From Mobula birostris (taxonomy: Eukaryota), in the NCBI RefSeq assembly GCF_030028105.1, contig NC_092372.1, positions 160,400,058 to 160,464,057 on the forward strand: a stretch of DNA of 64,000 nt, written 5' to 3'. A program made the translations under genes and the position numbers. The notes below the pieces were generated by a model. That model was not told the DNA's origin, did not search any database, and was given only the letters and a program-made list of their open reading frames with translations. Positions 3,001 through 60,935 of this stretch are shown piece by piece. How positions within the stretch are numbered: position 1 is the stretch's first letter; each line of letters starts with the position of its first letter.

Positions 3001-3880
3001 ACTACCCTGGAGGTCCTGCTTCTCAGCTTCCTTCCTATCTCCCGGAATCTCTCTTCGGGATCTCCTGCCTTTTCCTATCTATATCATTGGTACCAACATG
3101 TACCAAGACAACTGGCTGCTCGCCCTCTCCCTTCAGAATATTCTGGACCTGATCCGAGACATTCTGTACCCTGGTACCTGGGAGGCAACACACCATGCGG
3201 GTATCTCTATCAGGCTCACAGAATCTCCTGTCTGTTCCCCTAACTATGGAATCCCCTATGACTACCGCATTCCTCTTCTTCCCCCCTGCACAACAGCACC
3301 AGGCTCAGTGCCAGAGACCCGGTCACCGTTGGCGTCCCCTGTCAGGTCATCCCCCTCAACAGCATCCAAAACGAGATACTTGTTGAGGGGGGCAGCCACA
3401 GGAGTACTTTCCACTATCCCGGCATTTCCCTTCCCTCTTCTGACAGTCACCCAGTTTTCTGACCCCTGTAGCTTAGGGATGACTGCCTCCCTGTAGCTCC
3501 TGTCTGTTACCTCTTCACTTTCCCTAATAAGCAGTAGGTCATCAAGCTGCAGCTCCAAATCCCTAACACGATCTCTGGGGACCTGGTGCAGATGTGGCCA
3601 TCAGTGAGGCTGGAGGTCTCTCAGGATTCCCACATCTGACACTCTGAACAAAGCACTAACCCTGCAGGCATGCTACCTAATTCTACAGGAATGAAACAAG
3701 GAAAAATAAGACTACTCACCCACTTTACCTCGCCAAACACACAAACTTTTTAAACCGTTAGCTCGTACCATTAGCTGTGTGAGCCCTGCTGTTCTTGTGT
3801 CTGTCAGGGCCGACTCGCCAAGGGGAAAAAAAAAGAGTTGGTGCCTTGCTCTCACCTCTTCCCGTTACCACCTAAGCCCC
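1..3880 (-). mobile_element. CR1 LINE with ORF1 and ORF2, degenerate; 3' end runs off the window
   Basis: ORF1 fragments with an SGNH/GDSL-esterase-like C-terminus (DGLHLN, 2763-2990). APE endonuclease (YLNARSI, AITETW, VGDFN; 1697-2584). RT fragments (NYRPVNL, YLDFQK, GFPQGSVLGP, INDLD) broken by frameshifts. Confidence 0.92.
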
Positions 3881-4996
3881 TGATTATTTGCTCCCCTGAT
3901 TATTTTTATATATTAGAGAATGCATAATGCCTAATCTTTCAGAAGGAATACACTTGAAGCTCGAAGCAACTTCTCTGGATTCACATTTTCTCTTCTGGTT
4001 TTTGTCAAAAACCACATTGTGTCTTCCAGCTGAAGATGGTAGTTATTAATATTCAAGATAATATATATAAAGGATCAGTTTCCCTTATTAAACAATTGCA
4101 TATTAAACTATTGTAAAATATTAACAATAAATTTATAACTTATTCAAAAATATTTCTTTCAATTTGGATGAAGTCTAGAGAATACCAATTTTTTTTTTAT
4201 GCTCCAGAACAAGAGAGTATGAAAGTTGATCCTTGTAAATTTGGCAAAGTTAAAGAGTAATTTTCTGAAGTCTGAATTGAAGTAACTGGAAAAAAATGGC
4301 CTTCGAGATGGTTTGCAGCCAATAAAAACAATACTGTTTTCCAGAAATAATTAGAACTCATTTCAAGAATTGATGATGGAGCCACAAAGCAAAAGGTGAG
4401 GTAAGGATATAAAAACTAAATAAAGCCTTGTCAGAATTTGTAGAGTAGGGAATATAACATTTAATGTAAAACAAATAGGACAATGAACAGGTGGTAATGT
4501 AATGAATGGCTCAGCCAGTCAGGAGCAGAGTAAGGTCAAAGAAAAAAACTAAAATTGATGCATTAATTAAAAGAAAACATATAAAGTCACTGAACAAACT
4601 ATGTTATCAGACCTGTTATGTCAATTAAACTATGGCAATTATTGCATTTCCACAAAATAAGCTCTTCTTTTCCAGTCAATTTTACAAATTGTATCCTATT
4701 GAAATGTATCACATTCTTTGGTTGACAGAATATGTGCATCACTCTTTGAATAAGAAACAAGAATGTGACGATTTTGAGTGCAGATGGCTGTTTACTGTAA
4801 CTGAACTTCAACTTGTCAAAGTGACAGCCAATATTGCTCAGTCATCTGGGCCCTAATCTAGAGATTAAGTCATGGAAAACAAGATATCACTGCTGAAGCG
4901 CTATAGTGTTTGTCATGAAAAAGCAAGTAGAAACAATGTACTGTTTATTTGTGGATGCTCGTTACAAAGCAGATGCAATATATTTAGGTGAAATAA

Positions 4997-6420
4997 ACAT
5001 AGAACACTACATCACAGGAACAGGCCATTCAGCCCACAATGTTGTGTCAAACCAATTAGTTATCAAATAGCCCACTAAACTGATCTCCTCTACTTTCACA
5101 ACATCCACATCCTTCTATTTTCCTCACATTCATGTGCCTATCTAAATAGCTCTTAAAAGTCTCTAACGTATCTGCCTCTACTATCCCAAGCACTGCTTAC
5201 CGGGAACCTACCACTCCCTGTGTAAAACAAAAATGCCCTTCACATTTCCTTTGAAGTTATTCCTTCTCACCTTAAATGCATGCCTTCTAGTATTAGTCAT
5301 TTCAACCACGGGAATAAGTTGCTGTCTGTCTACTTTATTAATGCCTCTTGTAATCTTATAGACCTCTATCAGATCTCCCCTCAGCCTCTGCTGCTCCAGA
5401 GAAAACAACCCAAGTTTGTCCAACCTCCCTTTATAGCATATACCCCCTAATCCAGGCAACATCCTGTTAGGTCCCTTCTGCACCCTCTCCGAAGCCATAG
5501 CATCCTTTCTATAATGGGGCAACCAGAACTGTATGCAATGCAATACTCCAGAAGTGGCCTAACTTTTGTTTTATAAAGCTGCAACATAACTTCCTGACTT
5601 TGAACTCAATGCTTCAATTAAAAGGGCAAACATGCCATATGCCTTCTTAACCACCCTATTAGCATGTGTAGCAACTTCTAAGGAACAATGAACTTGGACC
5701 TCAAGATCGCTCTGCTCATCAATACTGTTAAGGGTGGATTGTTCATTTACTTCTGGCCTACCAAGTGCAACAGTTCATATTTGCCTGGGTTAAACTCCAT
5801 CTGAGATTTCTCTACCCAAATCTGCAGATTCTTTGTCAGTCTTCTACACTATCCACAACACTAACGATCTTCGTATTATCTGCAAACTAACTAACCAACC
5901 CATTTACATTTTCATCCATGCCATTTATATACATCACAAACAGCAGAGATCCCAGTGCAGATCCCCGTGGAACACCATTAACCACAGACCTCCTGCTAAA
6001 ATAAGTTGCTTTGACCACTATCATACCCACCACATGGCTAATTCATCATGGATCCCATACATTTTAATCTTCTGGATGACCCTCCCATAAGGGACCTTGT
6101 CAAATGCCTTACTAAAATCCATATAGACAATATCTGTAACTCTTCCATCATGAACCACCCTCGTTACCTCACCAAAAAACCCAATCTAGTCAGAAAGAAA
6201 TGGCTTGCCCCACACAAAGCCAAGCTGGCTCTCCCTAATTTGGCCATAGTTTGCCAAATGAGCATAAATCCTATCCCTAAGAAAGCACAGTATCCAACAC
6301 CATGTCCAATATAGCTGTTCCTCTTTTTGGACTAGCTACATATTGATTTAAAACACCCTCCTGGATGCACCAAACAAACTCTGCCCCAACTAAACCTTTT
6401 GCACTAAGAAGATCCCAGTT
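4997..6420 (-). mobile_element. CR1 LINE 3' part, degenerate
   Basis: catagaaca-type tail at ~4997; ORF2 C-terminus (IQFWLPHYRKD...RLRGDLIEVYKI) at 5208-5543; further RT and endonuclease remnants. Confidence 0.85.
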
Positions 6421-15309: not shown

Positions 15310-15522
15310 TGTAGGGTATTGTAATTGGTGGAAATGTACGTATTTCACAACCACCGACATAGAGTTGGGGTTCACCGTAACAGGCTGTCTGATGTGATGA
15401 TGTAATTATTTAAAATACTTGTACTGTACTTTATGTTCAGTGTTTGGAGTACAATAAATGAGTTGTTACAGTTTTTCCTAAACATAAAATGCGTCATGCA
15501 GATTTATTTGCAAAAGCCTACA
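15310..15522 (+). repeat. 3' LTR
   Basis: TG...CA termini; preceded by the polypurine tract; contains aataaa; followed by the gcac TSD. Confidence 0.9.
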
Positions 15523-16553
15523 GCACAATTAACCATATAGAATTCCAATGTCACAGCAGTAAGTGAGACCTAGATTGAAAAAAAGGAATGAGATCTAAGT
15601 ATATTCCTGGAGATAGGATGGTCAAGAATGTTAGGGAAAAGAAGCAAGTAGGGATATACCATTGTTAATTAATTTGAATATTGCTGGTCTGGAGAGTAAG
15701 CTGGAATGACCAAAGAGATGGATGTGTCTGTTTAGGATTAAAAAGCAATAAAGATGGAATTACATTACAGGCTGCCAACAAGTTTTCAGAAAAGCTACAG
15801 ATATGAAAACAAAAGCCCTACTGGGGTGACAACTATACAAATATATCCTGGGACAAAGAGAGGGAGGAGTTTCCACAATGTGTTCAGGAGAACTTCCTTG
15901 ATCAGTTTGCTTCTACTTTAGCAAAGAAGGGAGCATTGTTGGACTTGGATCAAGAAAATGTGGCAGAACAAGTGGAGCAAATATTACTTGGAGAAGCTAG
16001 AAGCAAACTGATCAAGAAAGTCCTCCTGAACACATTGTAGAAACTCCTCCCTCTCTTTGCCTCAGGATTTATTTGTATAGTTGTAGATATCACTCTGATA
16101 GGGCTTTTGTTTTCATATCTGTAGCTTCTCTGAAAACTTGCTCCTTAATGTCCTCCCTCAGCGCAGTTGGCAGCCTGTAATGTAATTCCATCTTTATTGC
16201 TTTTTAATCCTAAACAGACACATCCATCTCTTTGGTCATTCCAGCACACCATTACTCTCCAGATCAGCGATATTCAAATTAAACAACGATGGTACAACCC
16301 TGCTTTCTTCTTTTCCCTAATATTCTTGACAATCCTATCTCCAGCAATACATTTAGATCTCATTTCTTTTTTTTAAGCTAGGTCTCACATTGCTGTGACA
16401 TTGGAATTGTATATGGTTAATTATACTGTAGGTTTATGTAAATAAAGTAGCACAAAGCATCTGATGTTTAAGAACTGTAACAACTCATTTCTTTTACTTC
16501 AACCACTGAATATAAAGCACAGTAAAAGTACTTCACGTAATTACATCATTACA
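15393..16553. repeat. Long inverted repeat (arms ~15393-15915 and ~15998-16553, spacer ~82 bp)
   Basis: Direct reverse-complement comparison; 15700-15779 is the exact reverse complement of 16166-16245. Confidence 0.93.
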
Positions 16554-20273: not shown

Positions 20274-22219
20274 ATTATATTATTGACCTGACATATTGAC
20301 ACTGTTTCTCGTCCCGCAGATATAACCTGACTTGCTGAGTATGTCCAGTATTTTCTGTTTTATCGTAGTGCAGTGCGGGAACAGGCCCTTTGGTCACAGC
20401 GTGATGGTACACTAAATAAGTGAATGACACCCAATGAAACTAATCAGCTCTGCGTCTGGTTTTGCAGCTCTTCTGCCCATGCTGCAAGAAACTGCAGGAA
20501 GTTGTGCTGAGCCACGCTCACATCATGAAAACCAGCTCCATGGACTGTATCTACATTTCTCAGTGCCTCAAATGTAATCAAAGAATTATATAGCATGGAA
20601 ACACAGCATTCACACCAACCAGTGGGAACCCTTCTGTATTGGTCTCTTCTCCCAGAACTTCAATACCAGGTGATTCAGGAATTCATCAAGATGATTCACG
20701 TGCTCATCCAAACACATCTTAAGTGTTGTCAAGTGACACAGCTTTTTTGTATAGAGTGTAAAGGAGAGCCAAGAGTGGACAACAGAACACTGAAAAATGT
20801 TGCTGGAGAGGTAGAACAAAGAAATGGTCGACAAACTGAATAATTATTTTGGATCAGTCTTCATTGTGGAAGACACCAGAGAGAGTCAGGGGGAAGAAGT
20901 GAGTGTAGTCACTACTACTAAAGCAGGGGTCCTTGCAAGGATTAAAGGTCTGAAAAGAGCAGTTCTGATGGGACAGGTCCCACCTGAAACATGTTGGCAC
21001 CAAGGTCATGGCCAATCACATAACTAGGGCTCTAGATATTGCTTTAAACTAAATAGAAGTGGGGGGCGGGGTTCAACAGCTTGGAAAAGTATTGATAAAT
21101 AGGAAGGAGAATGTAGGAAAGGTTAGACGTCTCCAAACTAAAGAATAAGAGAGGAAGTTTAGAAAGGGTTAAGAATTTAGTTTCCGGCAACATGGAGTGA
21201 AGGTGATGTATTCATTCACACAGTATACAAAATAAGATAGATGATTTTGTTCTGCAGCAAGAAATTGGCAGTATGATGCTGTGGGCATCACAGAGTCATG
21301 GCTAAAAGAAGATCACAGTTGGGAGTTTAACATCCAGGAATAAACTTCATACCAAAAGAACAGACAAGTGGGTGGCTTTGTTGGTAAAAAATGAAACCAT
21401 ATACTTAGAAAGATGTGATATAGAATCAGAAGGGTTAGTATTCTTGTGGGTAGAGTTGAGAAACTACAAGGGTAAAAGACCCTTCCGCAAATTTATATGC
21501 AGGCCTCCGAACTAGCCAGGATGTGGGATACAAATAGCAATGGACAATTGAAAAGCCATGTAAAAATGACATTTTTATGATGGTTATGGAGGAATTCAAT
21601 ATGTAGGTAGTTTGGAAAATCAAATTGGTGCTGAATCCCCGGAGAAGGAATTTGTGGAACGTCTATGAAATGTCTTTTAAGAGCAGATTGTGTTCGAGCC
21701 GTATGGGGAAAAGGAAATCCTGGATTGTGTTTTGTATAATGAACCAGATTTGATTACTGAGTTTAATGTAAAGGAACTCTTAGGAGGCAGTGATCATAAT
21801 TCATCCTGCAGTTTGAGAGGGAGAAGCTAAAATTAGATTTATCAGTATTAGTGCTGAGCAAAAGTTAAAATAGAGTTTGAGAGGGGAGCTGGCCAAATTT
21901 AATTCGAAAGGTAAACTAGCAAGGATGATGGTAGAGCAGCAAGGCTGGAGTTTCCGGGAGTAACTCAAAAGATGCAGGATTGGTTCATCCCAAAGAAGAA
22001 GAATCATTCTAAAGGGAGGATGCGGTAACTGTGGTTGACAAGCGAAGTCAAAGACAACAAAAAAGGCAAAAGGGAGGGCATACAATATAGCAAAAATTAG
22101 TGGGAAGCTAGAGGATTGGGAATCTATTAAAAACAACAGTAGGCAACTAAAATAGAAATGAGAAAAAAAATGAAATATGAAGGTAAGCTGACCAATAACA
22201 TAAAACAGGATAGTGAAAG

Positions 22220-24048
22220 AAGTAGGTTCAGGTGTAGCACTTGCGCTTACAGGCATAAGTGCCAGGTGGGAAGTCTGTGGGGAGGGACATGTGGACCAGG
22301 GAGTCGCGGAGGGACCGATCCCTGCGGAAAGCGGAGAGTGGTGGAGAGGGAAAAGTGTGCTTAATGGTTCACTATGGATGTCCAAACCCTATACACCTCC
22401 ATTCCCCATCAAGAAGGCCTCAAAGCCCTCCGCTATCTTCTGGATAATAGACCTCACCAGTACCCCACCACCACTACCCTCCTCCGGTTGGCAGAACTGG
22501 TTCTCACACTCAATAACTTCTCTTTTGGCTCTTCTCACTTTCTTCAGACTAAGGGTGTAGCTATGGGAACTCGCATGAGCTCTAGCTATGCCTGCCTCTT
22601 CGTTGGTTATGTGGAACAGTCTGTGCTCCAAACCTATTCTGGTACTGCTCCCCAACTTTTCCTTCGCTACATTGACGACTACATTGGTGCTGCTTCCTGC
22701 ACCCATGCTGAGCTCGTCAATTTCATCGACTTTACTTCTAACTTACACCCAGCCCTCAAATTCACTTGGTCTATCTCGGATACTTCTTTCCCCTTTCTCG
22801 ATCTCTCGGTCTCCATCTCTGGAGACAGACTGTCCACTGACATCTTCTACAAGCCCACTGACTCTCATAACTACCTCAACTATACCTTTTCCCACTCAAC
22901 CAAATGCAAAAATACCATTCCCTATTCCCAGTTCCTCTGTCTCCACCACATCTGCTCCGGGGATGAGGTTTTCCATTCTAGGACATCTCAAATGTCCTCT
23001 TTCGTTAAGGATCGTGGTTTCCTTTCTGCTGTCATCACTGACGCCCCCACCTGCATCTATTCCATTTCTCGCACTTCGGCTCTCACCCCATCCTCCCGCC
23101 ACCACAACAGGGACAGAGTTCCTCTTGTCCTCACCTAGCACCCCACCAGCCTCCGGATCTAGCACATTATCCTCCGCAACTTCCGCCACCTTCAACAGGA
23201 CCCCACCACTAAGCACATCTTTCCCTCTCCACCACTCTCCGCTTTCCGCAAGGATCGGTACCTCCCCACGGATCTCCCACCTGGCACTTATCCCTGTAAG
23301 CCCAAGTGCTACACCTGTCCCTACACCTCCTCTCTTGCCACCATTCAGGGCCCCAAACAGTCCTTCCAGGTGAGGCAACACTTCACTTGTGAGTCTGTTG
23401 GGGTCATCTATTGCATCCGGTGCTGCTGGTGTGGCCTGCTCTACATCGGTGAAACCCGACGCAGATTGGGGGACCGCTTCGTCGAGCGCCTCCGCTCAGT
23501 CCACCAAAACAGACAGGATCTCCCTGTAGCCACCCACTTCAACTCTGCTTCCCACTCCCATTCAGATATGTCCATACATGGCCTCCACTACTGCCATAAT
23601 GAGGCTAAACTCAGGTTGGAGGAGCAACACCTCATATACCGTCTAGGTAGTCTCCAGCCCTTTGGTATGAACATAGAATTCTCCAACTTCCGGTAATTCC
23701 CTCCCCTTCCCTTCCCCTATCCCTATGTCACTCTGCCCCCTCCCCCAGTTGCCTATCACCTCCCTCATAGTTCTGCCTCCTTCTACTATCCATTGTGTTT
23801 TCCCCTATTCTTTCTTCACCTTTCCTGCCTATCACCTCCCTGCCTCCCCTCCCCCACCCCTTTATCTTTACCCTTACTGGTTTTTCACCTGGAACCTACC
23901 AGCCTTCTCCTTCCCACTGTCCCCCACCTTCTTTATAGGGCCTCTGCCCCTTCCCTCTACAGTCCTGATGAAGGGTTCCAGCCCAAAACATCGACCGATC
24001 TTTTCCACAGATGCTGCCCGACCTGCTGAGTTCCTCCAGTGTGTTATG
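22220..24048 (+). mobile_element. Penelope-like retroelement (RT + GIY-YIG), 5'-truncated, with an inverted 5' segment
   Basis: RT 22374-23138 (MDVQTLYTSIPH, KGVAMGT, RYIDD, PFLD, FYKPTD). GIY-YIG endonuclease 23370-23696 (VIYCIRC..CGLLYIGET). In-frame stops between them. 13-bp TSD aggatagtgaaag at 22207-22219 and 24049-24061. Confidence 0.93.
23960..23997 (+). ncRNA. Minimal type I hammerhead-ribozyme relic in the PLE 3' region (core mutated)
   Basis: cagtc-CTGATGA-a-gggt-tcca-gccc-AAAA-catc-gaccg. CUGAUGA box intact, stems I and II present; GAAA and GUC altered by G>A at CpG positions. Confidence 0.7.
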
Positions 24049-24660
24049 AGGATAGTGAAAGTATTTTTAGATATATAAGGAGTGAACGAGAGGTAAGAGA
24101 ACTGGAAAAATGATACTGGAGAGGTAAGGATACGGAAACAAGAAATGGTGAACAAATTGAAAGTATTTTGTGTAAGTTTTTCCTGTGGAAGATTGGACAA
24201 GTTACTTGGACCAGATGGACTACACCCCAGGGTTCTGAAAGAAGTTGAAGAAGAGATTGTAGAGGAATTAGTAATGATCTAACAAGATTCACTAGGTTCT
24301 GGAATGGTTCCAGAGGGCTGAAAAATCTCGAAAGTAACTCCATCTTAAAGAACAGAGGGAGGCAAAAGATAGGAAATTTCACACCAATTAGCCTTACTTT
24401 AGCAGTTGGCAAGATGTTAGAGTCCATTATCAAGAATGAGGTTTTGGGTACTTGGAGGCACACAATAAAATAGGCATAGTTTCCTTCAGGGAAAATGTTG
24501 CCTGACAAATCTGTTGGCATTTTTTGAGGAAATAACAGGCAGTGGGAATAAAGGGGGCCATTTCTGGTTGGCTCTGGTGACTAGTGGTGTCCCTCTGGGC
24601 AGGGATCGGTATTGTGTCTGATAGTTTTCGCGTTATATTCCATAAAGACCTGCATTACAG

Positions 24661-24934
24661 GTATGGCGCGTGGCCAAGTGGTTAGGGCGTTGGACTAGCC
24701 ATCTGAAGGTCGTGGGTTCGAGCCTCGGCCGAGGCAGCATGTGTGTCCTTGAGCAAGGCACTTAACCACACAATGCTCCAGTCTACCCAGCTGAGAATGG
24801 GTACCGGCAAAAAATGCTGGGTTAACCTTGCGACAGACTGGCGTCCTATCCGGTGGGGGGGTGGGGGGGAGGAGTTTCGTAGTCTCACGTCACGGAAACT
24901 GGCATAAGCCACAGGGCTCGTGACAGACTTTAAT
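24661..24934 (+). mobile_element. Young tRNA-derived SINE with CORE-like domain
   Basis: A box tggccaagtgg, B box ggttcgagcc; CORE-like gtgtccttgagcaaggcacttaacc; CpG-rich; 11-bp TSD ctgcattacag at 24650-24660 and 24935-24945. Confidence 0.88.
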
Positions 24935-32684: not shown

Positions 32685-34690
32685 TTTTCAAAGTTTAAGG
32701 TAAATTTTATCATCAAAGTACACATATGTTGCCATATACAATCCTGAGATTCATTTTCTTGTGGGCATACTCAGCAAATCTATTGAATAATAACCATACC
32801 AGAATCAACGAAATGCCACCCAAATAGGGCATTCAACCAGAGTGCAGAAGACAACAAATTGTGCAAATCCAATGATAATAAATATGCAATAAATATCGAG
32901 AACATGAAATGAATAGATTTTGAAAAAGAGTCCATTGCTTGTGAGAACATTTCAATGATGGGGCAAGTGAAGGTGAGTGAAGGCATTCCTGAACCTGGTA
33001 GTGTGAGTCCTGAGTCTCTTGTAGCTTCTTCCTGAAGGCGGCAGTGAGAAGAGTGTATGTCTTGGATGGAAGGGGTCCCTGATAATGGATGCTTCTTTCC
33101 TGTGACAACACTCCATGTAGATGTGCTCATTTATTGGGAGGGCTTTACCCATGATGGACTGAGCCACCTCCACTATTTTTTGTAGGATTTTCCATTCAAG
33201 GGCATTGGTGTTTCCATACCAGGCCGTTACGCAGCCAGTAAATATACTCTGCACTCCACATCTATAGATACTTGTCAAAGTTTTAGACAGCATGCTAAAT
33301 CTCTGCAAATTGCTAAGCAAGTAGAGGCACTGCTGTGCTTTTTTCATAATTGCACTTGCATGCTAGGCCCAGGACAGGTTCTTCAAAATAATAATACCCA
33401 GGAATTTTAAGTTGCTAACTCTCTCTGCCTCTGATTTCTGATGAGTATTGGCACATGGACCTCTGGATTCCTTCTCCTGAAGTCTATAATCATCTCTTGA
33501 TGCTGATGGTTATTGCTGATAGTCTTGCTGACATTGAGTACGAGGTTGTCGTTACGACACCACTCAGCCATGTCTTGCTGACATTGAGTACAAGGTTGTC
33601 GTTACGACACCACTCAGCCATGTCTTGCTGACATTGAGTACGAGGTTGTCGTTATGACACCACTCAGCCATATTTTTAATCTCCTTCCTGTATGTTGATT
33701 CATTATCACCTTTGATTCAGCCTACAACAGTGGTGTCATCAGCAAACTTGAATATGGCATCGGAGCCGTGCTTAGCCACACAGTCATAAGTGTAAAGCGA
33801 GTAGAGCAGGGTACTAAGCCTACAGAATTGTGGTGCACTTGTGCTAATTGAGATTTTGGAGGAGGTGTTGCTGCCAATCTGAATTGACTGGGCTCTGCAA
33901 GTGTGGAAATCCAGGATCCAATTGCACAAGGAGGTATTGAGGCCTAGGTCTTGGAGCTCATTAATTAGTTTTGAGGGGAAGTTGGTATTGAATGCTGAGC
34001 TGTAGTTGATAGAGAGCATCCTGATGTATACACCTTTGCTGTTGAGATGTTTTAGGGTTGAGTGAAGAGCCAATGAGATGGCATTTGCTGTTGTCCTGTT
34101 GCTCCATTAGACAAACTGGAGTGGATCTAGGCCATTTTTCAGGCACGAGTTGATACGTTTCATCACCAGCCTCTCAAAACACTTCATCACTGTGGATGTA
34201 GGTGTTACTGGGCAATAGTCATTGAGGAAGGTCACCACAGTCTTCTTGGGCACTGGTGTAATTGAAGCCTGCTTGAAGCAGATGACTACATCCGACAGCC
34301 AAAGCGGGAGGTTAAAGATCTCAGTGAACCACTAGCCAGTTGATCAGCACAGAGCCTTATTACAGATATCCTATCTGGGATGGATGCTTCTCGTGGGTTC
34401 ACCCTCCTGAAAGCTACTCACACATCAGCTTTAGAGATTGATCATGGAATCATCAGGGGGATGTGGGCATTTGTAATGGTTCCTCCATATTTTGATAGTC
34501 AAAGCGAGCATAGAAGGAATTGAGCTCATCTGGAAGTGAAGCCCTGCTGTGTTACTTGATTTAGCTTTATAAGAAGTGAAAGTATTCAAGCCCTGCCATA
34601 ACTGTCAAACATCCTTCATTGATTGAAGTTTGGTCCAGAATTGCTAATTTGCCCATGAAATGGCTTTAGTGCAGCAAACAGCCAGATCCT
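32685..34690 (-). mobile_element. Rex1/Babar-like LINE, degenerate 3' half
   Basis: RT motifs RMLSINYSSAFNT, LCNWILDF, FKFADDTTVVG (33717-34073); C-terminus KKAQQCLYLL...HTTRFRN; same 3' tail family as 30075-31060. Confidence 0.85.
33522..33671. repeat. Tandem triplication of a 50-bp unit inside the LINE
   Basis: gtcttgctgacattgagtacgaggttgtcgttacgacaccactcagccat x3; copies differ only at two CpG positions. Confidence 0.97.
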
Positions 34691-36424: not shown

Positions 36425-36540
36425 CTTCCCCCTTCCTTACCAGTCCTGAACAAGGGTCTCAGCCCAAAATATTAACTGTTTATTCCTTTCCATAGATGCT
36501 TCCTGACCTGCTGAGTTCCTCCGGCATTTGGTGAGATTTG
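36425..36540 (+). repeat. Short PLE-terminus-like repeat with decayed hammerhead motif
   Basis: cagtcctgaacaagggtctcagcccaaaatattaactg...atagatgcttcctgacctgctgagttcctcc. Confidence 0.7.
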
Positions 36541-38470: not shown

Positions 38471-41283
38471 AAAGAGTTACAAACAAACTGAATTTAGAAT
38501 TTTATGGTTACTATTGGGGAGATCACGAATCATAATTTTGCCAAACAATGTTTAAAAGGAACAGTGACAACTTGGTAATATACCGTCATAATGATTCATA
38601 CACCATAGATAAGAATGATTTGGTTCACGATATGAGCAAATGACTTTTAAAGGAGATATTCATTTAGACTAGTCCCATTCTCCTTTCCATGAACTTGTTA
38701 AAACACTTATCCAGTATGCTTCTGTAAGTTGTTGTCCAACTGGACTGAGGTTCAGTTGGTAATTATGCAGAGAACTAGCTGTAGTATCTTGGTCACTGGT
38801 TCCTATCTTCCAAGTCTTCTCATCTGCACATTTGATATCCTCCTCTTTCACTGCACACAACACTAATTTTGGTAAGAGCACAGGCATACTGTGTTGAGGG
38901 AGTGGATATTGTCGTGTCCAGCCCCACAACTTGGCTAAAAAAAACTAGTGTAAGCAAGTGGATTGCTTTGCATTTGGTTGCTATATCTTGATGGTTTACA
39001 CAAGTTTTTATCATAAGGGTGTTCTTAAGTGAATGTTTTTAAATAATTATTTAAATGATTAAACCCACTTGAATAGGTTTTGATCGTTAGTGCATTTCAA
39101 AGCAGGTCAGGAAGCCATTGACATCAATGAATTGTCAAAAGGTAATTGGCTCAGTCTGGGGCAGGTTGTCAGGGACAGCTGCCTGTGGATTGACCAGAGT
39201 TCATGAACTGTTCCAACTTGCTTCAGGGACATTTGCTCAGGCAGGGCCAATTATCAATAAACAGAGAAGCTAAGTATTATGCTTGTCTTAAATTTCATTT
39301 ATACACATGTTCATATAAGGTGTCATGACAGAAGCTGGAAGTTAGGAAGTTAAAGGATCCTGTGCATCCAATAAGAGCACCCAAGATGGCCATTGTAGGT
39401 GATCTTTCAATGCTCAGACTGGGCACGTGTGGGCATCAGCCTGATCAGACTGAGGTTTCTGGCACCAACATTGGCACAGATCAGGGAGCTATCAAGAAGG
39501 CATTATGTCTGTGATGCCCTGAGGAATCCAAATGTAAGTGCTTCTGACTCTAACCAATATGGGTGAAAATAAGTCCTAATGCAGGATTTCTACCTGAAAT
39601 ATTGACAATTCACCTCATGCCACGAATGCTGTTTGACTCATTGAGTTATTCCAATCATCCAGCATCTGTGGTCTCTTGTATTTCCATTGGTTATTTTTAT
39701 GTGTAAATAAGATTTAGAAAATCATGATATCTTGTTTCCCTACAGCTGGAATAAACTGGAGGATATATGAAGCCCATGACCACTGTAGCAGTGGCCAGAG
39801 GTTCTATTCAACTGACTACCAAGGGCCTGAAAGTGGCTTTGAAGTGGAGTGTGTGGTGGTTGGATACTGCATGGAGCCTGCAGTGACTCAATGGCAAGGA
39901 CAAGGTCCTCAGTTTTCAACATTATGCACTGGTCATTGCAAAACATCTACTCTTCTATAGGTTAGGTCACACTTCCTATGTTGAACCTCCTACTGACCTT
40001 CAATTCTTCAAGGTGGTTCTTGTCAGTGGTCAGCAGCATGTTAATCCTGATATTTAAGCAAAGCCCTGTGGACATTTGCATCTCTGGTGATATAGTCATA
40101 ATGAAGGAAGTTTCATGAGAATCTTTACCTTTGAAATTCAGGATGGTTGGTTTCACATTACTGCAGCTTTAAACTGCAGAATAGAATACTGAAAGTCAAA
40201 CATTTCTGTTCAGTCCACCGTCTTCTCTTTTATCTCCCAGCACTTTGCCTAACCAGTGTTATTTCTACATCTGCCAGCATATACACTTACTATCTTTTCT
40301 GAAAATTATTCCCGTAAGGTTCTCTTTAATCCTTACTAACACCACCAAAAGGTTTTCCAGATGAGCTTTCTTGCTGAGGGTTACATTTAAGATTACAATC
40401 ATTTCTCTATCATCTCTGCTGCAGTTTGATAAACCTTGGATCTGTAAGTTTATCTGCAGATCCGATATAAATCAGCCAAAGAATTGCATTATTGAGTAGC
40501 CATATCCTGTCTTTTCATAAAACATCAAATATATGCGGGTGTCTGTATCAATTGGTTTTTCCTCCACTGAACCAAATGACAGCACTAAGCTCACTAACAG
40601 GAAACGAAATACGGCATTCATGTGGTACATAACTGAACAAATCTAACAGTCCTGATTCATTAGTGACTCCTGAATTTAAAGTAGCAACATTTTTTAGTAT
40701 TTACAAATTAGATAATTCTAAGTATTGATCACTCATGCAGGCAATGGATAGACATGGTTGTCTGATACAGCTCAACTAGCAATGCAGCAGAATTTTAGGA
40801 AAACAATCATGGAATTAAGTCCTTGTTAAAAATGTCTCAATTCAGACATGCTATTGTTTTAGTGGCACTTCTATTTTGTAACTTACTGCTACAGAACAAA
40901 GTTAAGTTAACTTGAAGCTAATGTGATTCAACGCTTTTTACAATTAACACAGGGGTAATCTTCATCAGTTTATTATTGGATTATATTCAAACACAGGAAT
41001 GCAAGGCCAGCAAACACATGCATGTCATATCTGAGTTTCTACAAACAGACTATTATCAATACATGGGTACCAAAACAAGATGTTCTTAAATAGCTTAGAG
41101 TTTTCTTTAGGATCTTTCCAAATTACAAGCCAAAACAGTGATGAAAATGTATTTTTTTCAAGGGCTGTGCAGGCATCGCCTTCTGCTGTCTCTGAAATTG
41201 TGAATTTTATTATCCAAGCAGATTATGAGTCCTTCACAAAAAGGTCAAGTCCATTTTTATTTAACCAAGCTGTTGCTCACGTG

Positions 41284-47570: not shown

Positions 47571-48715
47571 CTGCAGAAATCATAGAACAAGGAACAACTT
47601 GACATTTCAGTAGTAGTTCTTCAGGTGAAAAATATATTAATGCAATTTTAATATATGTATGAAATTTTAAATAGAATCAATGAATTTAGAAAAGAATTAA
47701 GTTTCCTTGATTAAAATAAATCAGAAGACACTGTCATATAGCTGAACGATTGATGAAAAATAAACTCTTACTTCTGTTTTACAGATTTACTACACATTAC
47801 AGTCAATGATGTTATGCTTTTATTCGCTCTTTTTAAATATGTAGCTAATTGGCTTACATTGAACAATTGAGAATTTTATTTAGGTAGTAAAGAAAATAGT
47901 TTTGAGTGAATGGGATATGTACATTTCTTTGATGGTACTTCTAAGGATCACTAGTTAAATGATAAAAAATTATGTCCTTTTAACGACTATCCATAAAGAA
48001 TTCTAACTGCCACTGTTGCAAAGTTTGGGCTAGAAATTTCATGTGTAATGTAACACTTCCATGTTCCATCTGACTGAATTAATCGAAAACCCAGCCATTA
48101 AATAGAACTGGATACATCATCTCCTCGCAACACACTTCTGGACATTCAATGGCATTATTGCATGTCTTCACACACTGAAGCCTTTGAGTGAGAATAATCA
48201 GCGTGGGGAGAATGACTGACATCACTCTTGCTGTCGTCTACAGCAAAAAATAAAGTGAATGAATGAATGAACGAGCAAGGTTTCAGATCTAAAAGCTTAC
48301 CTCCAGATGGTTCACTTAAAAGACAAGTTCAGCAGTGAAGGTGCTTTCAAGAGGGGCAGATCTTCATTAATATTGTGTCTTATTTTCTTCCTGGCATATG
48401 GGGCCACAGTTGGGTAGGCCTAACCATCATGATTCTTATCCCAGTGGCAAAGATGCACACATCCATACACAGCCAAATTTCCCTAACAGTGGTCTCTGTA
48501 AGGGAGTTTCTCTTTAAGAATGTCCCTGAAGAAAATCACCTCGGTAAGATCATGCTTCATTAGTACAAGCCCTGGATGGCTGAAAAGAAGCTTCAAATAA
48601 GTGGGTCCAGGGCTCCAAGCAGCATCATATCTAATCCCATGTTGAGGTATTTCTAGACAACTTAGTTGAGTGTTAAATATAATATGCATTTAAGTTAAGA
48701 TATATAATTACTTAC

Positions 48716-48972
48716 CCCATTGCTCTTCTGTATCCACTAATCTCAAAAACTACTATGTATAAAATAGTGACGATGAACAGGAGGATCATTTTTGGTAATG
48801 AAGATACACGAAGGAATATTGCAAGACTTAGTGTTCCGACAACACATGCAAGGAAAGCATAATGCGCTGCATCACAGGGCAATTCATTCATTGTTTTATT
48901 GAATCCATCAGGAGCAACAATAACAATAGAGGTGCTGGAGTTGGTAGTCCATACCCAAGGCATGCAGCCAAC
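48716..48972 (-). CDS. ADCY1: ADCY1 coding exon (VGCMPWVW...RVSSLPKMILL...GYRRAM; extracellular loop and TM helices)
   Basis: 257 bp; acceptor ttttatacag, donor gtaagt, phase 0 to 2; contains the AC1 motif LAIFLRVSSLPKMILL. Confidence 0.95.
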
Positions 48973-49104
48973 CTGTATAAAACATAATAAGGTATCAAAA
49001 GCAAAGCAAACAGCATTGGTATTTCTTCCTGAAACCTCCAGAGACAAATTAAAATGCAATTCTGTAGTATTACTGGGTTTCCTCTAATTAAGTGCAACAC
49101 AACT

Positions 49105-58843: not shown

Positions 58844-58932
58844 CTGAAGGGTCTCGGCCCAAAACATCAACTGTACTCTTTTCCATAGATGCTGTCTGGC
58901 CTGCTGAATTCCTCCAGCATTTTGTGTGTGTT
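58844..58932 (+). repeat. Short PLE-terminus-like repeat with partial hammerhead motif
   Basis: ctgaagggtctcggcccaaaacatcaactg...atagatgctgtctggcctgctgaattcctccagcattttgtgtgtg. Confidence 0.75.
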
Positions 58933-59040
58933 AATTAGTTTAGTTATGTTATGCTTTTTATGTTAGTTTAGTTGTATATTTTTTTCAGATCTCAAAGTCC
59001 ATTTAACATGCAATGAGGCATTTTTTGATGTACTGTCACA

Positions 59041-60174: not shown

Positions 60175-60935
60175 TTAGACCATAAGACCATAACATGACG
60201 GAGCAAAATTAGGCCATTCAGGCCATCAAGTCCACTCCACCATTTCATTATGGCTGATCCCGGAGCCCACTCAACCCCATACACCTGCCCTCTCACCATA
60301 TCCCCTGATGCTGCAACCAATCAAGAATCCATCAACTTCTGCTTTAAATTGCCTCCACCACAGTCTGAGGCAGAGTATTCCACAGATTCACTATTCTCTA
60401 CCTAAAAAAATTCCTCCTTACTTCTGTTCTAAAAGGTCGCCACTGAATTTTGAGGCTGTGCCCTCTAGTTCTGGATACCCCAACCATAGGAAACATACTC
60501 TCAACATCCAACGTTGACTGTACCTCTCCCTAGAGATGCTGCCTGGCCTGCTGTGTTCACCAGCAGCTTTGATGTGTGTTGCTTGAATTTCCAGCATCTG
60601 CAGAATTCCCTGTGTTTGCGCTCTCAACATCCACCTTATTTAATCCTTTCAGCAGTCGGTAGGTTTCAATGAGTTCCCCACACATTCTAAATTCCAGTGA
60701 GTACAGAGCAAAAGCAGCTAAACGCTCCTCATATGTTAATCCCTTCGTTCCCATAATCATCCTCGTGACCTTCCTCTGAACTCTCCCCAATGACAATACA
60801 TCAAGTGTGGCCTGACTAGAGTCTTATAAAGCTTCAGCATTATCTCCTTTTTTAAAATATTCTATTCCCCTTGAAATAAATGCCAATGCTGCATTTGTCT
60901 TCTTTACCACAGACTATCCCTGTGAATTAACCTTG
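60175..60935 (-). mobile_element. CR1 3' fragment, interrupted at 60511-60620
   Basis: Tail agaccataagaccata; RVQRKVTRMI, YEERL, LYSLEFR remnants. Confidence 0.82.
60511..60620 (+). mobile_element. 110-bp non-autonomous PLE-terminus-like insertion with 13-bp TSD
   Basis: TSD ctctcaacatcca at 60498-60510 and 60621-60633. Body acgttgactg...agatgctgcctggcctgctg...ccagcatctgcag is homologous to 23988-24045. Confidence 0.85.

Follow-up and report, generated by a model that had tools for sequence, protein, structure and literature searches.

The minimal type I hammerhead ribozyme (min-HHR) was defined in the end repeats of Penelope-like elements (PLEs) by Cervera and de la Pena in 2014 (PMC4209133). 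In this motif, an unpaired base separates positions 9 and 10.1, G10.1 pairs with C11.1, positions 15.2-16.2 are palindromic and loop 3 is lacking; it is present in Xena, Poseidon and Neptune elements of fish (PMC4209133). In the Poseidon element PAc from Anolis carolinensis (Frangieh et al. 2024, PMC11167929), reverse transcription starts internally at two sites on uncut RNA, the hammerhead cuts only when protein is present, and catalytic mutants insert equally well in vitro. Neptune/Nematis PLEs (Craig et al. 2021, PMC8557442) comprise a reverse transcriptase (RT), a CX2-5CxxC linker and, at the C-terminus, a GIY-YIG endonuclease, and display 5' truncation, inverted 5' copies and an optional tail of 30-40 nt. 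Non-LTR retrozymes, which have been reported in the one cartilaginous fish sampled (bioRxiv 10.64898/2026.07.22.740005), are tandem arrays whose hammerheads are of type I and have a link to the end repeats of PLEs. PMC8557442 and PMC11167929 treat the role of the PLE hammerhead as an open question. Titles and abstract openings carried no mention of hammerhead CpG decay, of shark PLE hammerheads or of truncation at the ribozyme, which subscription papers and supplements may report.

The kind of ribozyme that we describe here is one already known since 2014, and the motif in the window (the whole 64,000-nt stretch of Mobula birostris DNA that was analyzed) is a mutated, likely dead copy of it in a new family. 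The family shares with the min-HHR of PMC4209133 the type I topology, the CUGANGA and GAAA core, the NUH triplet and the location in an end repeat, as well as the occurrence mostly as single dispersed copies from truncated elements. It differs from the motifs described there in that: 1) stem II has 4 bp, whereas that of the Schistosoma families has 7-8; 2) position 7 is a C; 3) the window copy is decayed. As in PAc (PMC11167929), the 3' ends downstream of the ribozyme fall into two clusters separated by 30-40 nt, insertions likely derive from uncut RNA and ends do not accumulate at the cleavage site; unlike PAc, the protein carries a Cys linker of the Neptune/Nematis type, with which the element also shares RT, C-terminal GIY-YIG, 5' truncation, inverted 5' copies and the optional tail (PMC8557442). 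Judged solely by this linker, the element may be assigned to the Neptune/Nematis type. In contrast to the tandem arrays of the non-LTR retrozymes (bioRxiv 10.64898/2026.07.22.740005), whose type I hammerheads it resembles, this locus has just one copy, set in a coding element that is truncated. The explanation that we favor, with a probability of about 0.88, is a decayed end-repeat minimal hammerhead of a very abundant PLE, likely copied from uncut RNA and then subjected to ordinary CpG decay.

The insertion and its decayed hammerhead

The motif resides on the plus strand in a 5'-truncated PLE insertion of 1.83 kb (22220-24048), bordered by an exact 13-bp target-site duplication (22207-22219 on the left, 24049-24061 on the right). 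The host sequence is a decayed LINE, seen as inverted repeat pairs, with flanks showing homology to the endonuclease/RT LINE copies of the window; a tRNA-like SINE head is inserted in the same LINE at 24660-24740, where ARAGORN found no tRNA gene. The insertion begins with an inverted piece of the RT-to-endonuclease linker region on the minus strand (22220-22368; blastn of 23205-23324 against 22368-22222), with 87% identity to the subfamily reference. This piece is followed by a 5'-truncated RT frame ending in a premature stop (22365-23138, plus strand), for which 148 scored genome relatives showed 84-90% identity, and by the Cys linker (CX3CX2C) with the GIY-YIG endonuclease (23163-23696, stop codon at 23694-23696), to which 94 C-termini in the sampled loci are related. 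The RT and GIY-YIG motifs are visible in the translations, with Pfam scores below cutoff (RVT_1, E=7e-5) or weak (GIY-YIG, E=0.065). Downstream lie a pyrimidine-rich 3' UTR or pseudo-LTR (23697-23959; 89-93% identity in subfamily-B loci), the hammerhead itself (23960-23997) and a conserved 3' segment of 51 bases (23998-24048); of the two 3' ends known in the family, it stops at the shorter one (about +58). Irrespective of its ribozyme, the copy is also dead in its ORF, owing to truncation and stops.

The 5' side of the hammerhead consists of one stem I strand (23960-23964), the core (23965-23971) and the extra A (23972), followed by a stem II of 4 bp with a 4-nt loop (23973-23984) in which a fold check showed pairing to be retained. 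An A replaces G12 at 23985 and another replaces G16.2 at 23990, with the 3' strand of stem I at 23993-23997. Under hammerhead numbering, the predicted cleavage site C17/G1.1 falls at 23992/23993, and the window copy reads through it. The same numbering is used in PMC4209133. The initial annotation, made from the letters of the window, had described these letters as a type I minimal hammerhead in a PLE ~265 nt past the GIY-YIG stop; both the letters and the PLE hammerhead assignment are borne out, with a distance of 264 nt, and intact copies of the family carry the core GAAACGUC and agree that there is no loop 3, only the ACGU palindrome.

That annotation had also ascribed the damage to CpG sites, and the comparison with related copies supports this point. 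Compared with the most frequent letter at each position in 83 B-like segments (subfamily B is defined below), the window copy displays four CpG transitions, at 23969 (position 7), 23980 (loop), 23985 (G12) and 23990 (16.2), and these are all four of its private differences from intact copies of its subfamily. The one further difference is a C interrupting stem I, a shared variant (28 C and 34 T, n=62) also found in the natural copies L088, L097, L099 and L100; since it is common to many copies, it does not represent damage. Only two of the four palindrome pairs are left, so that the window motif lacks both G12 and a pairing stem III. Loss of G12 would abolish hammerhead catalysis, and with G12 and the ACGU palindrome both lost via CpG transitions, the window copy is predicted to be inactive. 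Rfam gave no hammerhead match in the window at E<=10, nor in four loci with intact cores; as it missed even the latter, Rfam is blind to this minimal form.

An ancestral sequence had been proposed by supplying the missing bases from three other copies in the window, at 39596, 58849 and 60511. While all three bases are present at these positions, the reconstruction is wrong at position 7, which should be C, and its loop was borrowed from another subfamily; the proposed ancestor is therefore a mixture, the donors lying outside the subfamily of the window copy. One donor is a 5'-truncated copy beginning within the core at -23 (58846-58933, plus strand), which aligned best with subfamily A; the second is a subfamily-A stub, recognized by alignment, beginning 6 nt upstream of the cleavage site (60510-60609, plus strand); and the third is an old and heavily diverged copy (39574-39653, plus strand; blastn and alignment). 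Another ribozyme with its tail, older and more decayed than the motif under study, was found by blastn and alignment at 36441-36534 on the plus strand.

Three further features of the window were recorded. On the minus strand at 48715-49083, there is a frame with a hydrophobic stretch, which in our estimation resembles an adenylate cyclase transmembrane exon; Pfam and PDB returned no match for this frame. Nested inverted repeats at 15393-16553 form a palindrome of more than 1 kb with one pair of 80-nt arms that is 100% complementary, and three tandem copies of 50 nt with 95-100% identity lie within a LINE fragment at 33522-33676.

Abundance, subfamilies and structure of the family

An exact pattern for the intact core yielded 11,631 and 11,592 matches, or 23,223 in the 4.01-Gb genome, with none in the reversed control; PMC4209133 gives ~4,000-9,000 copies for coelacanth and Xenopus, with descriptors that differ from ours. 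To avoid selecting on the ribozyme itself, we built a profile of the tail downstream of it, which gave 161 hits when run over 1.11 Mb of DNA sampled at even spacing (reversed control 0). Of these, 155 could be aligned and 96 had an ungapped ribozyme region, with an intact core in 28. Enlarging the sample to 1.30 Mb gave 185 tail matches and 32 relaxed intact cores, which extrapolate to ~570,000 PLE end fragments and ~100,000 intact cores in the genome. The word "relic" in the initial annotation thus fits the window copy but not the family, given tens of thousands of intact family cores. Among the 94 C-termini listed, 59 are followed by the hammerhead 195-312 nt past the GIY-YIG end, and the strict motif was not matched within 420 nt of the other 35.

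The family comprises at least two young subfamilies, A and B, which differ in stem II loop, UTR and tail, with exact A-type tails numbering ~64,000 genome-wide vs. ~9,000 for B-type tails. The window copy belongs to subfamily B, in which position 7 is C in 50/59 copies; the T of the window copy is therefore a further CpG change, with G8 lying within the same CpG. The unpaired A between 9 and 10.1 is found in 94/96 tail-selected copies. Position 11.1 is C in 55/63 B copies and U in a young A subfamily, and positions 15.2-16.2 have CG in 47/63 B copies, the others displaying mostly CpG decay. In the most abundant young subfamily (L037, L074, L131 and others), the U at 11.1 leads to a G.U pair at the base of stem II, with the other CpGs kept. 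Two individual loci deserve separate mention. L088 (minus strand, 3274-6348) harbors an open frame of 1025 codons in a near full-length element with an inverted 5' copy, and L010/L011/L227 (G000:C1:2642185-2642251) consists of three ribozyme units in direct tandem at a 40-nt period, two of them with intact cores, which is the sole tandem among all sampled loci.

Intact copies have a stem I of 3-5 bp, a stem II of 4 bp and all of the published features, namely the unpaired base between 9 and 10.1, the G10.1-C11.1 pair and the palindromic 15.2-16.2. Compensatory stem changes within the family were found in 0/9 pairs (11 sequences), as would be expected of recent copies. Structural support comes instead from comparison between families, where it is clear. 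With a pattern in which only the core was fixed and the second stem II pair of the main family was forbidden, a search gave 289 matches vs. 18 in the control. Among these are no fewer than four other repeat families that share the core and have a wholly different stem II that still pairs. In 30 fetched loci, some decayed main-family copies included, stem II had a mean of 5.9 pairs vs. 2.6 after shuffling, and in families D and E stem I, too, is complementary with letters of its own. Loci L168-L197 contain at least four repeat families besides the main one that have the hammerhead core, a stem II of 6-8 bp and upstream peptides that by eye look like Poseidon-type GIY-YIG ends; Pfam and tblastn gave no significant match for a PLE identity of the other hammerhead families.

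In folding predictions for intact monomers, the lowest energy belongs to an inactive rod, formed by pairing of G5-G8 with 15.2-17; the hammerhead fold is 2-5.5 kcal/mol less favorable, and a double hammerhead lies 14-19 kcal/mol above the best predicted dimer. The fold z-scores are weak (-0.4 to -2.0). The rod and dimer predictions accord with the low activity reported in 2014.

Read-through, 3' ends and 5' ends

Among 52 copies found by the UTR alone, 51 continue past the cleavage site and 49 end at +56 to +98 in two clusters, as would be expected of insertions copied from uncut RNA. The single copy that ends exactly at the cleavage site (1/52) is L079 (minus strand, 3143; G000:C9, ~33158790), a subfamily-B copy with an intact core that adjoins an older element end, with a clear target duplication being absent. 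For short stubs, 5/20 share at least 7 target letters vs. 21/380 control pairs, suggesting that many stubs are simple insertions, though most are not resolvable. An old diverged copy with unique flanks, used as a query, matched no RNA run; the three runs that matched were contigs, probably DNA.

In L088, the tail after the ribozyme leads into the ATG of the long frame. In tandem transcripts of an active element, the motif thus lies ~95-100 nt upstream of the start codon of the next unit, whereas the ORF of PAc starts inside its ribozyme (PMC11167929). Based on published work, we infer that cleavage of such transcripts would likely be weak, taking place as a dimer or with the assistance of protein, and would serve to process them into units. 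The template of most insertions was likely uncut RNA, on which reverse transcription would begin at either of two sites, 55-72 and 92-100 nt beyond the cleavage site, and an inserted copy would thereafter mutate as any methylated DNA does, rapidly and at the ordinary CpG rate.

The 5' ends were examined in 105 young copies, left from a set of 202 after removal of 97 older ones, with 30 loci picked by the B tail at one chromosome end. Among 82 copies at risk, 33 end at -35 to -18 from the cut, corresponding to 2.2% per base vs. ~0.5% on either side, and the peak persists without inverted junctions (16/57). The ends thus pile up at the upstream edge of the ribozyme and not at the cut site, within 2 nt of which only 2/105 young copies have their 5' end. 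Genome-wide, we counted junctions that had three non-matching flank letters and scaled the counts by the chance of such flanks; as the patterns differ in length and specificity, the resulting numbers are rough, with 359 ends at -38, 6,075 at -31, 235 at -12, 1,419 at 0 and 651 at +6 for subfamily A, and 48 at -38 and 651 at -31 for subfamily B.

The ends at the cleavage site had been considered as a sign of cutting in vivo, a reading that we rejected upon inspection of the junctions. Of the 266 raw matches genome-wide, 100 were listed, and 54 of these are an inverted-copy flank joined through stem I letters, with 11 more showing a second such flank; the remainder scales to ~600, like the +6 control. 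Inverted junctions at the cut site would look the same if cutting had preceded a template switch. Recognizing that inverted junctions via stem I letters account for most of the excess at 0 and that pieces of the ribozyme itself make up many of the flanks at -31, we consider template switching on short shared words to be the likeliest source of the 5'-end pile-up, with the balance tipped slightly in its favor. Transcription start at a motif at -32, which we take to match the initiator consensus, comes second and is a good deal less likely. Internal promoters and Inr-like sites of PLEs have been described (PMC2377424, PMC3846280). A splice acceptor, with an intron from the stop codon to the ribozyme edge, was not supported, as none of the 94 GIY-YIG ends joins the ribozyme directly; a donor-like splice site after the stop is found in subfamily B only.

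We also observed frequent head-to-head fold-back mini-insertions comprising ribozyme and tail (L013/L014, L049, L068, L073, L126, L155), which join within the ribozyme or at its edge. One may speculate that the hammerhead is the true 5' end of the RNA, with transcription starting at an initiator-like motif in the opening bases of stem I and reverse transcription starting internally 90-130 nt downstream and running off at this end, so that a short circuit rather than self-cleavage made the mini-insertions; we hold this scenario to be doubtful. Were it true, tens of thousands of junctions would show where the RNA starts and that it is uncut in the germline, while L079 and other rare copies would be records of real cuts in vivo.

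The read-through of nearly all UTR-anchored copies bears on a broader alternative, in which the main reason for retention of the motif is a role as a signal, structural or protein-binding, at the RNA 5' end (a start site, a pause or a template-switch point), and the motif rarely or never cleaves in this family. The predicted dominance of the rod, the replacement of G10.1-C11.1 by a G.U pair in the most prolific young subfamily and the gathering of 5' ends at the upstream edge of the motif are all compatible with such a role, as is the undiminished insertion of anole PLE catalytic mutants in vitro (PMC11167929). However, a signal of this kind does not readily account for an exact catalytic core that is conserved among subfamilies and in unrelated families whose stems differ, nor for the termination of L079 at the cut site; in addition, the anole motif does cleave when protein is present (PMC11167929). 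We therefore regard this alternative as unlikely, and retain the reading of a minimal hammerhead whose element is mostly copied from uncut RNA.

CpG decay and its meaning

The initial annotation had proposed that host methylation and deamination disable the ribozyme in particular, with the catalytic G12 and the G of GUC sitting in CpGs. CpGs do lie at G12 and in the palindrome, but the motif harbors five of them, not two. A specific off-switch that preferentially hits catalytic CpGs might be suspected from the CpG density of the ribozyme (5 in 38 nt vs. 55 in 1774 nt elsewhere), from the minority of sampled copies that kept their core and from the window copy, which lost 4/5 ribozyme CpGs vs. 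11/52 elsewhere (Fisher 0.014, binomial 0.024). The window copy, however, is the most extreme of 27 and was chosen after the fact, and its excess is within chance given 27 copies. In a matched test on these 27 copies, which span both ribozyme and ORF, 38/133 CpG sites were decayed in the ribozyme vs. 374/1343 outside it (28.6% vs. 27.8%, Fisher p=0.84), with non-CpG transitions at 402/20,922. Over all 83 segments, decay was 27.2% inside and 28.4% outside, and CpG sites where a change does no harm (loop, position 7, position 17) decayed equally. As loss inside the ribozyme equals element-wide loss, the damage is neutral CpG decay and not a specific disabling, and, with the window copy dead anyway by ORF truncation and stops, we consider the off-switch to be very improbable. 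The consensus CpGs at G12 and the palindrome mean that the core is lost quickly after insertion; at this age, a little over half of the copies are expected to have kept all four exposed core positions.

Two patterns at CpG sites concern the elements rather than their dead copies. The 11.1/G12 site of young A copies reads TG (34 copies), CA (5) or CG (13), and the T at 11.1 is linked to a second diagnostic site in 17/18. This linkage indicates that a parent element fixed the change on the harmless side while G12 was kept, a single event that constitutes mild evidence of selection. Separately, in ~7/96 old copies examined by eye (e.g. window 36441, L074, L116, L117), both CpG letters of stem III are changed and the palindrome is restored as AUAU, with only 1-3 double changes at other CpGs; these copies could be an older compensated subfamily or could be due to chance.

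A chance resemblance of the 3' UTR to a hammerhead, for which one could cite the lack of an Rfam match and of covariation within the family, is refuted in practice by families that share the core while their differing stems still pair, and by a position that agrees with published PLE hammerheads.

The value of the decayed window copy lies in the scale of the family to which it belongs. With ~570,000 end fragments in the genome, the mechanism can be read from junctions, and the same genome supplies thousands of natural intact variants for cleavage assays. Finally, such motifs are quickly lost once inserted, owing to the CpGs of their consensus and without special targeting by the host.
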